Shown: piece after piece, positions 1-4,614 of the stretch
Layout of the letters: the number at the start of each line of letters is the position of its first letter
How positions within the stretch are numbered: position 1 is the stretch's first letter
Virus record (IMG/VR): IMGVR_UViG_2663762849_000009
Location: 1 to 4,614 of that record
Direction: 5' to 3' (one strand)
Length of the DNA: 4,614 nucleotides
Source: a virus
Lineage: Duplodnaviria; Heunggongvirae; Uroviricota; Caudoviricetes
The notes under the pieces: generated by a model
What the model saw: only the letters and a program-made list of their open reading frames with translations
Told to the model about the DNA's origin: nothing
Databases searched by the model: none
Program-made: the position numbers and the translations under genes

Positions 1-171
1 GGATGAACCACCGGAGCCAGAACCTGAACCACCTCTGCCGGATGAGCCGCCGGAACCCGAGCCGGAGCCACCGCTACCGGATGAACCACCGGAGCCAGAA
101 CCTGAACCACCACCGGAACTGCCGCCGCCTGGGTTACCACCACCGGAACTGCCACCACCTGAGCTACCGCC
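1..171 (-). repeat. Tandemly repetitive Gly/Ser-coding tract inside the J-like CDS
   Basis: The minus-strand translation is almost entirely Gly and Ser (...GGGSSGGGNPGGGSSGGGSGSGSGGSSGSGGSGSGSGGSSGRGGSGSGSGGSS...). Positions 1-33 and 79-111 are an exact 33-nt direct repeat (ggatgaaccaccggagccagaacctgaaccacc). The 15-mer accaccggaactgcc recurs at 108-122 and 144-158. The tract continues beyond the left edge. Confidence 0.75.
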
Positions 172-2403
172 ATCCTCCTTACCATCGGAGAATGCAGGAT
201 CTACAGCAACTGGTTTCCAGTCGGCAGTACAAACTGTATCATCATCGGGATTACAAATAAGAGGATTACCGGTTGCCTCATAAATACACCCCTGCACATT
301 AACATAACGGGTCCCGTCATCACCTTTATAAACATCAGAAAAAGTCATACCATCAAGAACCGGACGAGAAAGACAAATCTCGTCAGTTGGCGGCTTATTA
401 TATTCAGGTGTCAAATCCCCCTCACCACCCTGAAAAGCAAGGGTGCAGGCTGTCCACTTTTGCTTCACCACCCTCGGCGTGTCCCATTTCGCCAGCGCCA
501 GATACTGGCTGTCAGCTGCGCTCACCTCCACCGTCAGGTGCTGCACTGCCGGTGGGATGACGCTGTTCAGGGTGCCTGACTGCGGCTCAAAGCGGGCTCC
601 GTTATCCACAATGGCTTCTTTTTCCGGTACGTGCTGCACCGCCGTGATGGCAAAGGTGCCGTCCGTGTTTTCCCGGATGGCCACACAGCGGAACAGGCGA
701 CGGCGCAGTGACGGCAGGGAGAGTCCCCACACCCCGTATGTCTCCACACCATCAGGCAGGGTACTGACCTGTATCCGGTCCGGCGCGGGGTGTGCGGTGA
801 TGTCCACACTCACCGGCTTACCGCTGCCGTTAATCAGGTTCACCGTCGATGCACCTGTCCCCGGAAGTGTCACTTCACGGTCCAGCGTCAGGGTGCGGGT
901 GGCAGCATCAATGGACAGGACACGTCCGCCGGTCAGGGTTCCGGCATAGTCGTTATCACAGATTTCAATGATGTCGCCGGGTGTGTGACGCAGCCCCTGT
1001 GACCCGAGTGTGAAATCCACCGTCTGCGTTTCCAGCAGTTCTGTCTTTATCACCCACAGCCCGGCACGGTGGGCCTGACCGCGACTGGTGCAGCCGAACG
1101 CATCCATCTTCAGCAGGTTGCGTCCGTAGCGCAGTATGGCTTCCGGGTCTTCCACCAGTTCCGTGGAGGTCTGCCAGCCGTTCTGCGGGTCGGTGTAATT
1201 CACCTCCACCGCCGTGTGCCGGTCCTTCAGGGCACTGAAGCTGTAGCGGAACCCCACGCCGTTATCATCCACCACCACATCGCTGTTGGTGTACGGCCAC
1301 ACCACATCCGACGTGCGGTCCTGAACGAACGTCAGCGTCTGGCCGTTCCATACCGGCATACAGCGCATCGCCGAGCAGAAATCACTGAGAACGTCCCACG
1401 CCTTACGCTGTTGTGCCAGGTACGCATTAAAGGTCATCCGCGGCTCTGTGCCCCCGAAACCATCCGGGACCGTCTGGTCGCAGTACTGCCCGATGGCATA
1501 CAGCGCCCACTTGTCCACATCCGCCGCCCCCAGACGTTTTCCCATCCCGTAGCGCGGGTGAGTCAGCATGTCCCACAGGCACCAGGCCGGGTTGTTGCTG
1601 TATGCCGGTTTCAGACTGCCGTCCCAGATACCGCTGTAGGTGCGTTTTTCCGGGTCATAGTTTGACGGCACCTGGATGATGCGACCGCGGATATGGTAGT
1701 TCACCGTCATCTGCTGACCACCGAACTGCTCCGCATCCACCTGCAGCCCCACAATCGCCGTGTTCGGGTAGCACTGTTTCACATCGATGATTTCGGTGTA
1801 CGATGACCAGAGTGTTCTGTTCTGCAACTGGTCCGTGGTGCTGTCCGCCGTCTCCCGGACCATCCGGATGTTAAAAGGACGGGGAGGCAGATTATCCAGA
1901 ATCACCGACGCCAGAAACTGCGAGGTGGTCTTGCCGTTAATGGTGACATCCTTTTCTGTCACCCAGTTACCGTTACGCTGTAACTGAATCAGCAGGCGGA
2001 CGGATGTCGGGTTTCGGTCACCCTTTGACGTGGTCTGCACCAGTGACTGCACCCCGAAGGTAACCCGCAGGCGGTCAATGTTCGCGGACGTAATGGTGCG
2101 CGTCACCGGTTTTGCCTTCGTCACTTCCACGCCCAGTACAGTTTCAGCTCCGGAGGACTCAAAGCCTTCCGGTGGTGTCTGCTCCTGCTCCCCGGCGCGC
2201 CAGACCGCCGTCACACCGTGTATCACGGGATTACCGTCCGTGTCCGTCAGCGGGGTTTTGTTCACCAGGATACTCTGCAGTCCCTTCACCGGGCCTTCTA
2301 TCGGTCCCTCACCAACCGCATCAATCACGCTCATCATCTGCGTGGATTTGAGATTATCCTTCGCCTCACGAGGCGTGTGTGCCTTACCGCCACCTTTTCC
2401 CAT
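1..2403 (-). CDS. J: Host specificity protein J / central tail fibre (lambda gpJ family), partial: N-terminal 801 codons in window, C-terminus beyond the left edge
   Basis: Hand translation of the minus strand from ATG at 2401-2403 gives MGKGGGKAHTPREAKDNLKSTQMMSVIDAVGEGPIEGPVKG..., which matches my recollection of lambda gpJ (MGKGSSKGHTPREAKDNLKSTQLLSVIDAISEGPIEGPV...). I checked the frame codon by codon from 2403 to 1 and found no stop. A GGAAGG Shine-Dalgarno lies 4 nt upstream (2408-2413, minus strand). J-like similarity continues to about ...HLTVEVSAADSQYLALAKWDTPRVVK (around nt 455-540), then diverges. It is absent from the ORF track probably because its stop lies outside the window. 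Confidence 0.9.
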   Translation of the reverse strand, partial: MGKGGGKAHTPREAKDNLKSTQMMSVIDAVGEGPIEGPVKGLQSILVNKTPLTDTDGNPVIHGVTAVWRAGEQEQTPPEGFESSGAETVLGVEVTKAKPVTRTITSANIDRLRVTFGVQSLVQTTSKGDRNPTSVRLLIQLQRNGNWVTEKDVTINGKTTSQFLASVILDNLPPRPFNIRMVRETADSTTDQLQNRTLWSSYTEIIDVKQCYPNTAIVGLQVDAEQFGGQQMTVNYHIRGRIIQVPSNYDPEKRTYSGIWDGSLKPAYSNNPAWCLWDMLTHPRYGMGKRLGAADVDKWALYAIGQYCDQTVPDGFGGTEPRMTFNAYLAQQRKAWDVLSDFCSAMRCMPVWNGQTLTFVQDRTSDVVWPYTNSDVVVDDNGVGFRYSFSALKDRHTAVEVNYTDPQNGWQTSTELVEDPEAILRYGRNLLKMDAFGCTSRGQAHRAGLWVIKTELLETQTVDFTLGSQGLRHTPGDIIEICDNDYAGTLTGGRVLSIDAATRTLTLDREVTLPGTGASTVNLINGSGKPVSVDITAHPAPDRIQVSTLPDGVETYGVWGLSLPSLRRRLFRCVAIRENTDGTFAITAVQHVPEKEAIVDNGARFEPQSGTLNSVIPPAVQHLTVEVSAADSQYLALAKWDTPRVVKQKWTACTLAFQGGEGDLTPEYNKPPTDEICLSRPVLDGMTFSDVYKGDDGTRYVNVQGCIYEATGNPLICNPDDDTVCTADWKPVAVDPAFSDGKEDGGSSGGGSSGGGNPGGGSSGGGSGSGSGGSSGSGGSGSGSGGSSGRGGSGSGSGGSS

Positions 2404-2743: not shown

Positions 2744-3424
2744 TTACCCCTGCCGCCCGATAACCACGACCTTTCCGCACCCGCCTTCATCACGGGTACT
2801 GATGTCCTGGGATATACGGCGGGAGCCAACCAGCATTTCCCCGTAAGGCACCGGCATCGGGTTACCCTGGGCAATCATGTTGTCCAGTGACGAAAAATAC
2901 GTGTTCTGTCTGCCGTTATCCGTTGCGCGGTAATCCGGTGTTTTTGCCTTCGGGGCCAGCATCTGGGCCACACCACCCAGAATCATGCTGGCCCCCAGTG
3001 AAAACAGCATCGTGGTGGCAGAAAAACCGCCGGCACTCAGGGCTGTACCCCATAACGCCATCGAGGCACCGGCAGTGAGGAAAGAGCCCACGATGGCTGC
3101 CGCCCCCAGCACAATCTGCAGTCCACCCTTTCCGGCCCCGGCCAGTCGCGGCACAATATGGATAACCGTTCCCTCACTCAGTGGTTCGTGAAGGCGGGCA
3201 TACACCGCCTCCGGTGCCGTATCCTCACCGGCAATGCGTATCTGGTACCAGCCTTCGTTCATCTGACGGCGAAAGCCCGGCACCTGCATCGACAGTGCGC
3301 GGATGGCTTCCGCTGCCGTGTTCACATACAGGCTGAGGCGGCGGCCAAATCGTTGTAAATCCCCGTGAAGGCAGATGCGTGCCAGTGGCGGTGACGCCAG
3401 ACAGAATGCGTTCGTCGTTGCCAT
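2744..3424 (-). CDS. I: Tail assembly protein I (lambda gpI family)
   Basis: The 226-aa ORF (MATTNAFCLASPPLARICLHGDLQRFGRRL...TDNGRQNTYFSSLDNMIAQGNPMPVPYGEMLVGSRRISQDISTRDEGGCGKVVVIGRQG) closely resembles my recollection of lambda gpI (223 aa), including the ARICLYGDLQRFGRR and TDNGKQNTYFSSLDNM blocks. Its start overlaps the 3' end of the K reading frame by 103 nt, as in lambda. TAA stop at 2744-2746. Confidence 0.9.
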   Translation of the reverse strand: MATTNAFCLASPPLARICLHGDLQRFGRRLSLYVNTAAEAIRALSMQVPGFRRQMNEGWYQIRIAGEDTAPEAVYARLHEPLSEGTVIHIVPRLAGAGKGGLQIVLGAAAIVGSFLTAGASMALWGTALSAGGFSATTMLFSLGASMILGGVAQMLAPKAKTPDYRATDNGRQNTYFSSLDNMIAQGNPMPVPYGEMLVGSRRISQDISTRDEGGCGKVVVIGRQG

Positions 3425-3798
3425 TTTTCGGAATACCTCTCCCGTTTACTCAGTTGTTCAGGCAGATGGTGAAGCAGCTCACCGTTGCCGCAGTAAATGG
3501 CGGCATGGTTCGGTACCGAAGCACCAAAGCAGCACAGCAGAATATCGCCCGCCTGTGCAGAGGACAGGGGCACCCGGTAAAAGCCCGTTTCCTCCATATT
3601 GTCCAGGTACAGGTTCTGGCCGTTGCGCCACCAGTCATCCTCGCGATGAAAATCCGGCATTTCAGTCCCCGCCAGATGATAAGCATCCCGGAACAGCGTG
3701 TAACAGTCCGTCACCCCGTGCGCAAAGCGCCGTCCGGTCAGGTGCGGCACACAGCGGAATTTGTGAATGTCACCCCGGCAGACCAGCCACCAGGGCAC
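3322..3798 (-). CDS. K: Tail tip assembly protein K (lambda gpK family), C-terminal NlpC/P60-like portion; frame separated from the N-terminal portion
   Basis: Translation (V)PWWLVCRGDIHKFRCVPHLTGRRFAHGVTDCYTLFRDAYHLAGTEMPDFHREDDWWRNGQNLYLDN...LLCCFGASVPNHAAIYCG... matches the gpK C-terminal region as I recall it, with the Cys/His residues expected of an NlpC/P60 peptidase. The track start is a GTG at 3796-3798, preceded two codons upstream by an in-frame TAA, so this is the continuation of K in a different frame rather than an independent gene. Confidence 0.75.
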   Translation of the reverse strand: MPWWLVCRGDIHKFRCVPHLTGRRFAHGVTDCYTLFRDAYHLAGTEMPDFHREDDWWRNGQNLYLDNMEETGFYRVPLSSAQAGDILLCCFGASVPNHAAIYCGNGELLHHLPEQLSKRERYSEKWQRRTHSVWRHRHWHASAFTGIYNDLAAASACM

Positions 3799-4054
3799 TC
3801 TTTATCTGCAGCCGCCGGTCCGCCTCGCTCAGCCAGGGCAGACCACCGGGATGACTGTGGACCAGCGCCACAATCTCCCCCTGCATCTCTGCCCGCAGCC
3901 AGTCTTCCGGCGCAATACGAAAATACGCCTCCGGCTCTGCGGAAATATTCACACAAGGGATATACCGCTCCCCCTCCGGCGTTCTCACCACGAAGCCGCA
4001 CGACTCCGCAGGCGCACACCGCCGGGCATGTGCCAATATATTGCTATAGAGCAT
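3770..4054 (-). CDS. K: Tail tip assembly protein K (lambda gpK family), N-terminal MPN/JAMM domain portion; ends prematurely at TGA 3770-3772
   Basis: Translation MLYSNILAHARRCAPAESCGFVVRTPEGERYIPCVNISAEPEAYFRIAPEDWLRAEMQGEIVALVHSHPGGLPWLSEADRRLQIKS... contains an exact JAMM motif (E...HSHPGGLPWLSEAD, i.e. HxHx7Sx2D). I place the start at ATG 4052-4054, which has an AGGAG Shine-Dalgarno (4061-4065, minus strand), rather than the track's ATG at 4091-4093, which sits inside the terminator hairpin. Confidence 0.75.
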   Translation of the reverse strand: MLYSNILAHARRCAPAESCGFVVRTPEGERYIPCVNISAEPEAYFRIAPEDWLRAEMQGEIVALVHSHPGGLPWLSEADRRLQIKSALVAGLPG

Positions 4055-4066
4055 GAGAACTCCTGA

Positions 4067-4090
4067 TAAAAAACCCAGCCGAGGCTGGGT
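4067..4090 (-). terminator. Intrinsic terminator downstream of the 4109..4531 ORF and immediately upstream of the K ribosome-binding site
   Basis: Inverted repeat acccagc (4073-4079) / gctgggt (4084-4090) with a 4-nt loop. On the minus strand the hairpin is followed by TTTTTTAT (complement of 4066-4073). Confidence 0.6.
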
Positions 4091-4108
4091 CATTTCGTTG
4101 GTAATCTG

Positions 4109-4531
4109 TTAGTAGTGATGCAGTGAAGGCGGCAACTCTTTGCTCTTAAGCCTTACCCATGCGGAAAGATTCGTTGGTCCATCTGGCTCATTAATATCAA
4201 CATCTCGTGTGTGATTGATTAAAACGTCTCTCGCCATTCCAATAACATACGAGAACTCATGGCCGTAGTTGTAGCACCTGTCAGAATAGTTCGATTGAAT
4301 TTGCTTTAGCGCCGGATACAGTTCGCGGAATAATGCCTGTGAGCGGTTGGCATAATCCCATAGCCATACAAGGCTGTTTGCTTCTTTTGCGGAAAGCTCG
4401 TTGGTTTTCTTCTCTTGTTTGCCAATGAACTCACCTTCAAGCACTACCCTGTGGATGTACTCTACGGCCAGCGGGATTTGTTCAATTGAAAGTTCATCAA
4501 TGCTGTCAATACCAAAACGCTGATGAACCAT
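4109..4531 (-). CDS. Hypothetical protein, function unknown (AT-rich moron-like ORF upstream of K)
   Basis: A 140-codon ORF on the same strand as the tail genes. My hand counts of 60-nt stretches give roughly 40-43% GC here against roughly 60% in the J gene. An intrinsic terminator follows it immediately (4067-4090). I recognise no family from the sequence. No obvious Shine-Dalgarno precedes the ATG at 4529-4531. Confidence 0.55.
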
Positions 4532-4555
4532 ATTGTATGCATCGTCATAGCGAAG

Positions 4556-4614
4556 TCATTTCTTTCCTACCAGCATGTTTACTGCATCGCGTAGAGGTGT
4601 GCGTTCAGCTACTG
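4556..4614 (-). CDS. Possible 3' end of an upstream ORF entering from the right edge (last 18 codons, ...VAERTPLRDAVNMLVGKK, then TGA)
   Basis: This is the only minus-strand frame open from the window edge to 4559, and it is the same frame as the 4109..4531 ORF, separated from it by TGA at 4556-4558. Eighteen stop-free codons is weak evidence on its own. Confidence 0.25.
   Translation of the reverse strand, partial: VAERTPLRDAVNMLVGKK

Follow-up and report, generated by a model that had tools for sequence, protein, structure and literature searches.

The stretch of DNA analysed here (the window) is 4,614 bp long and corresponds to one entire contig, CCBY01000498.1, from the draft assembly GCA_000936105.1 of E. 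coli. All of its recognisable genes lie on the minus strand and, read from right to left, they encode the antirepressor Ant, tail protein K, tail assembly protein I and, beyond a 340-bp spacer, a J-like reading frame. The gene for Ant (nt 4109 to 4614), identified as a P22AR_C protein from matches to Pfam P22_AR_C and PHROG Ant, is cut off by the right-hand end of the contig. K, a protein with JAB and NlpC/P60 domains, occupies nt 3322 to 4093, and I (nt 2744 to 3424) was recognized by the Pfam family Lambda_tail_I and is likewise annotated in relatives. This is the arrangement usually seen where E. coli lambdoid prophages encode their tail tip; the order in close relatives is L, an insert composed of clpP, arc, ylcI and ant, then K, I, sodC in some, J, lom, and stf. 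A search of the window with Rfam returned no RNA families.

Both K and Ant are damaged. A 5-bp deletion after nt 3797 splits K into two ORFs, one carrying Prok-JAB (nt 3770 to 4093) and the other NLPC_P60 (nt 3322 to 3798), as identified from the ORF list and Pfam; compared to the related sequences L002 and L007, a GGGCA direct repeat is one copy short, and the resulting frameshift separates the JAB and NlpC/P60 halves of the protein. In Ant, an in-frame TGA is present at nt 4556 to 4558 where the codon of L007 is GGA, and this is the sole mismatch in 215 nt of alignment (99.5% identity). With the truncation of J described below, three inactivating lesions are thus found within 4.6 kb.

The J-like frame, on the minus strand, starts at nt 2403 and remains open for 801 codons down to nt 1; it begins with MGKGGGKAHTPREAK and runs off the end of the contig. 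Its first part (nt 466 to 2403) encodes the N-terminal 646 to 647 residues, or hub part, of the tip attachment protein J, as established by alignment and Pfam. An earlier sequence-only reading had described the frame as lambda-like for about 640 residues, up to ...LALAKWDTPRVVK, and as continuing from there without a stop, and this description holds: residues 1 to 647 are 75.8% identical to residues 1 to 648 of lambda gpJ and 95 to 97% identical to J of E. coli prophages (97.2% with J of L002), with ...LALAKWDTPRVVK being the last residues of the J portion. The J hub families FNIII-A_GpJ and Phage-tail_3 were both detected (PF24801, E = 3.8e-41; PF13550, E = 2.3e-38), and the frame is located downstream of K and I on the same strand, as would be expected of J. 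The hub domains and the K-I-J order are those of lambda gpJ and of J from lambdoid prophages, whereas these proteins possess complete Ig-like domains, a fibre and a receptor-binding domain that the fusion does not.

The homology to J ends at nt 463 in every comparator, leaving nt 1 to 462 as the divergent part, which falls inside the interval of nt 1 to 480 where the switch had been placed. The break lies within the first Ig-like domain (residues 609 to 647, nt 463 to 579, minus strand): the Pfam family Ig_J (PF24421) is complete, from position 1 to 104, in the intact J proteins of L002, L007 and lambda, while only positions 1 to 40 of the 104 are found in the fusion. Missing after residue 647 are the other 64 of the 104 Ig_J positions, together with Ig_J_second, Phage_Tail_Tip, and the receptor-binding Ig_GpJ_C; relatives possess all four families. 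The sequence-only reading had taken the C-terminal part of gpJ to be its LamB region. The LamB-binding domain is indeed C-terminal, but in lambda it comprises only about residues 1001 to 1132 (Pfam Ig_GpJ_C), and the break is thus located approximately 350 residues upstream of the usual site of host-range variation in J.

What follows J is QKWTACTLAFQGG...SDGKED, a segment with five cysteines, and then a Gly/Ser-rich tract of approximately 57 residues, in agreement with the features first noted. The sequence beyond residue 647 is foreign to J, as had been proposed, and none of the J homologues found carries it, so the observation that would have refuted the proposal (the same module as ordinary architecture in J relatives) was not made. 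Its source was identified by nucleotide comparison: nt 1 to 465 are identical at 463 of 465 positions (99.6%) to part of a 1,356-bp gene of E. coli 100416 annotated as encoding a "hypothetical protein." The fusion is read in the donor gene's own frame, K647 of J and K106 of the 451-residue 100416 protein being the same residue. Since the downstream portion matches a real gene almost perfectly and is translated in the frame of that gene, the switch in J is not a chance effect.

Within the incoming sequence, nt 196 to 387 (minus strand; fusion residues about 673 to 736) encode a domain of the N1 type, or TolA-binding type, from the attachment protein (g3p) of an inovirus, an assignment on which Pfam, PHROG, tblastn, PDB, and Foldseek agreed. 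The domain matches PF05357 (Phage_Coat_A) with 34.7 bits against a cut-off of 20.8, hits the PHROG family "attachment protein," and is 40 to 44% identical by tblastn to gene III of IKe, If1, and I2-2. The TolA-binding domain of IKe g3p (PDB 4EO1) was matched with E = 1.2e-13 and N1 of fd/M13 (1G3P, 2G3P, and 1TOL) with E of approximately 1e-8, with the four disulfide cysteines aligned. An AF2 model was built on the homologous region of the intact 100416 protein, its N-terminal half, and was confident over the N1-type domain only (pLDDT 67 to 86, compared to 24 to 39 for the first domain). The structure search of the cysteine segment, which had been suggested as a check, was made with this model; the top seven Foldseek matches were N1 structures of If1, IKe, and fd g3p (1G3P for fd; rmsd 1.0 to 3.0 A), with target-normalised TM values of 0.80 to 0.86 and rmsd of 1.5 to 3.0 A for the If1 and IKe structures 2X9A, 2X9B, and 4EO1.

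Four of the five cysteines lie inside the N1-type domain. Ahead of it, nt 388 to 462 (minus strand) encode QKWTACTLAFQGGEGDLTPEYNKPP, a remnant of 25 residues that corresponds to residues 107 to 131 of the 100416 protein and represents the end of the first, variable domain of g3p. This remnant holds the fifth cysteine, Cys112, conserved without exception among full-length relatives but here deprived of the rest of its domain. The five-cysteine segment thus combines an N1-type g3p domain with a single cysteine left over from the domain before it. The Gly/Ser tract (fusion residues 745 to 801; nt 1 to 171, minus strand), recognized from its translation and from tandem repeats with periods of 39 and 30 nt, is the glycine-rich linker of g3p. 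It is colinear with the linker of the 451-residue 100416 protein, and the EGGGS linker of fd g3p aligns here. Because the tract is encoded by these 39- and 30-nt tandem repeats, the contig ends at the linker, inside the repeats themselves.

As in g3p of IKe, If1, I2-2, and fd/M13, the N1-type domain in the fusion is followed by a Gly-rich linker. In the donor family, the N1-type domain comes second, after a variable domain of approximately 110 residues, whereas in the fusion J replaces the signal peptide and most of the first domain. A g3p would be expected to begin with a signal peptide that directs it to the periplasm, and the hydrophobic N-terminus of the donor (MIHFIIPLLFLFFSSFSFA) has here been replaced by 647 residues of cytoplasmic J. 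The sequence-only reading had anticipated a distal domain beyond the linker; by analogy with 100416, what lies there would be no binding domain but the C-terminal virion or membrane anchor of g3p, which the nearly identical 100416 gene encodes.

In strain 100416, this gene is located between small coat-like ORFs and g6-like and Zot-domain genes, the position of gene III. It is part of a filamentous prophage that occurs twice in tandem next to hipBA, each 8,739-bp unit carrying replication, coat, gene-III-position, g6-like, Zot-domain, and secretin genes. YpfPhi of Yersinia pestis, at 8.7 kb, also occurs as tandem copies and integrates at dif (PMC4266046). The likeness of the 100416 prophage to YpfPhi and to CUS-1 of E. 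coli K1, both dif-integrated tandem prophages of 8.7 kb, is one of layout only (PMC4266046). Of the records for 5,426 complete E. coli genomes, only 10 contain this type of gene III. Two short contigs carrying gene III (P0121 and P0134) have ends near the position of the joint.

A three-way nucleotide comparison placed the joint at nt 463 to 465, where the two parents share a microhomology of 3 nt, CTT (AAG on the coding strand, encoding Lys), which is codon 647 of J and codon 106 of g3p. This triplet is all that the parents have in common at the joint, and the limits of the megablast alignments concur: the gene III match extends to nt 465/466 and the J match begins at nt 463. XerCD/dif-type integration at the joint was considered and excluded, as no dif-like 28-mer was found in the window even with three mismatches allowed.

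The positions of the cuts bear directly on how the fusion should be viewed. On the J side, the sequence is interrupted at profile position 40 of the 104 of Ig_J. On the g3p side, for which the boundary was set by family comparison (the first domain in the AF2 model being of low confidence), the cut at residue 106 is approximately 25 residues inside the first domain, ahead of the module boundary of the family. Natural swaps of the second domain of g3p begin after ...EYNKP, at about residue 131: three family members (P0136, P0148, and P0171) have residues 1 to 131 in common with the donor type and then a different second domain, and a fourth (P0008) combines a different first domain with the same N1-type domain. 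With both partners cut inside domains, the joint is not of the kind expected of a functional module swap, which would lie at a domain boundary and allow both partners to fold.

The sequence-only reading had proposed an exchange of the distal, receptor-binding module of the central tail fibre that conferred a different receptor specificity. That the incoming piece is related to adsorption proved correct, the donor being the attachment protein gene of an inovirus, but it is this g3p and not a tail-fibre module that was acquired, and the proposed exchange of receptor-binding modules lacks support in view of several features. With the cut inside Ig_J, the second Ig domain is lost along with the tip fibre and the receptor-binding domain; the first domain of g3p is itself cut, which leaves its invariant cysteine without the remainder of that domain; and the same contig contains the frameshifted K and the premature stop in Ant. 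TolA is a periplasmic protein that serves as a co-receptor in infection by fd and If1. As this is the known partner of the retained type of N1 domain, the fusion would not have gained a domain for a surface receptor. Host-range mosaicism of J and the side-tail fibres in lambdoid phages likewise involves the replacement of distal J by a foreign, adsorption-related segment; the fusion differs in having its joint off a domain boundary, in occurring in no relative, and in drawing its donor from another virus realm. The joint thus looks like a scar and not like a module exchange.

A functional and selected tail-tip protein may still be envisaged, in which a lambda-type hub would display the TolA-binding domain of an inovirus on a flexible linker and thereby alter adsorption or penetration. 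The frame is kept, as are the complete N1-type domain and the linker, and proteins of the g3p family are themselves modular. Such a protein would nonetheless have lost the J fibre and receptor-binding domain, it would be built on domains cut on both sides of the joint, and TolA, in the periplasm, would be out of reach as a first receptor. A functional swap would also be expected to recur and to be flanked by intact neighbours; K is frameshifted, and no second instance was encountered in the collections searched. Overall, this possibility is considered very improbable. The fusion product is instead inferred to be nonfunctional as a tail-tip protein, because it has no fibre or receptor-binding domain and only part of an Ig domain, and because K and Ant are broken. 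Against this view, the retention of the frame together with an intact N1-type domain and linker could also be taken as a sign of selection.

Further occurrences of the fusion were sought in several collections. With megablast, no record spanning the joint was found among the 5,426 complete E. coli genomes or in a phage collection. A 180-residue query spanning the junction retrieved only fragments of J or of g3p from a database of 5.8 billion protein clusters, with at most 68% query coverage, and neither species-representative genomes nor JGI metagenomes contained the exact 34-nt string across the junction. The reciprocal product, comprising residues 1 to 106 of g3p and J from residue 648 onward, was also not found in the 5.8-billion-cluster protein database; the match of best coverage to this query (P0113, 81%) is a plain J fragment. 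A search of the literature found no relevant paper on J-g3p chimeras and none that mentions the assembly accessions.

The uniqueness of the junction in every collection searched counts in favour of an artefact, the main rival to recombination. According to this explanation, a chimeric library fragment, or an error of scaffolding or gap closing, would have joined J and gene III that are separate in the strain. The contig is only 4.6 kb in length, belongs to a draft assembly that is fragmented, and stops within tandem repeats; both partners reside in repeat-rich prophage regions, where assemblies often break; indeed, sister assemblies give contigs of 1.36 kb here, and fragments of gene III are found on contigs of 327 to 478 bp. 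Against this, there are no Ns at the joint, and the 3-nt overlap falls far below the k-mer or merge overlaps of assemblers, which are far longer than 3 nt. The frameshift in K and the stop in Ant also suggest a prophage that is truly degraded, unless these are errors too. On balance, an artefact is regarded as possible but rather unlikely. It may be added that the junction is known from one short-read draft contig, which weighs against viewing it as a scar, and that the contig is unbroken through the joint, which fits but does not prove a single-copy junction.

The explanation that best accommodates the two halves, the 3-nt joint, and the in-frame read-through is that the ORF is probably a chimeric pseudogene, the scar of an illegitimate recombination event in a defective lambda-like prophage. 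Codons 1 to 647 of J would have been joined to gene III from codon 106 onward by microhomology-mediated illegitimate recombination, with gene III contributed by a filamentous (inovirus) prophage of the same E. coli lineage. The event would have been a chromosomal rearrangement, and its simplest form would be a deletion of a few tens of kilobases, from a lambdoid prophage at a Qin-like site to a filamentous prophage beside hipBA in the terminus region. The chromosome of strain 100416 provides an example of the geometry involved: a Qin-type remnant with the tail genes H'-M-L-K' is situated approximately 47 kb away from gene III. The two share a strand, the remnant is transcribed in the direction of gene III, and ydfJ, mar, lsr, and hipBA lie between them. 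Given this orientation, a single deletion could generate the observed order and orientation of genes. The geometry for such a deletion thus exists in this lineage, as 100416 shows, and a deletion of this kind may have taken place in the source strain. The same joint would result if an inovirus genome had inserted illegitimately into J, or from an inversion. That the frame stayed open would be a matter of chance, expected for one in three random joints.

The most novel possibility is an expressed natural chimera in which the tail-tip hub of a tailed double-stranded DNA phage is combined with three parts from a filamentous single-stranded DNA phage, namely its TolA-binding domain, linker, and anchor. 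It would serve either as a new device for adsorption or penetration or as a decoy that titrates TolA, in which case it would block superinfection by filamentous phages or the entry of colicins. A chimera of this kind is considered very improbable. The fusion would become important only if the protein were proven to be functional.

The probable recombination scar has implications of its own. If the joint is real, it would provide a clean example of microhomology-mediated recombination that brought together, within one bacterial chromosome, genes from two unrelated virus realms. It also carries a caution for the interpretation of tail proteins: an abrupt switch in J that is followed by a cysteine-rich domain and a linker suggests a change of host range, while the mapping of boundaries and the decay of the neighbourhood point to a scar. 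Provided that the joint is real, it also illustrates how prophages in decay can give rise to chimeric ORFs that stay in frame and look like designed exchanges of modules.

Tail gene K is represented on the minus strand of the window by two ORFs, one encoding a JAB domain (nt 3770-4093) and the other an NlpC/P60 domain (nt 3322-3798); the gene is split at nt 3770-3800 because a GGGCA direct repeat has lost one of its copies after nt 3797, as seen by comparison with two E. coli prophage loci carrying intact J (L002 and L007). This lesion reflects a frameshift of the slippage type or else an error in sequencing. Towards the right end of the window, the antirepressor gene ant (P22AR_C) contains an in-frame TGA at nt 4556-4558, a codon that reads GGA in the relative from strain cM8a, which is 99.5% identical, and the 140-aa ORF at nt 4109-4531 corresponds to only the C-terminal part of the Ant protein of approximately 309 aa.

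The spacer separating I and J (nt 2404-2743) contains a near-consensus sigma-70-type promoter (TTCACA-16-TATAAT; nt 2609-2636) that lies on the plus strand and thus faces antisense to the tail genes, with a terminator-like hairpin (nt 2712-2728) approximately 75 nt downstream; a second, separate and strong hairpin is found at nt 2506-2537. Complete E. coli genomes that carry at least 80% of nt 2404-2760 number at least 1,445, and in strain cM8a the spacer site is occupied by sodC. A search of Rfam gave no match for the spacer, which could encode a small transcript or constitute a moron shell.

The strain with a near-identical gene III, E. coli 100416 (NZ_CM128593.1), was examined over two regions (L001, 1-16300; L010, 10661-14927). 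Its filamentous prophage of 8,739 bp is present as two tandem copies adjoining hipBA, and a Qin-type prophage remnant, the tail genes of which end in a truncated K-like ORF, lies on the same strand at a distance of approximately 47 kb.

Gene III contigs of 327-478 bp (P0121, P0132, and P0134, of the P0001 cluster) occur in several further draft assemblies of E. coli, and the ends of these contigs lie only a few codons from the J::gene III joining point (P0134 starts at WTAC and P0132 at ACTL); these ends may mark a common branch point of assembly graphs.

The g3p family of E. coli filamentous prophages, whose members include relatives of window nt 1-462, was itself observed to be mosaic (P0001, P0008, P0136, P0148, and P0171). 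The first 131 residues are common to some members whose Cys-rich second domain is unrelated, while P0008 has the same N1-type domain with a different first domain. This mosaicism suggests true module exchange near residue ~131 within the family.
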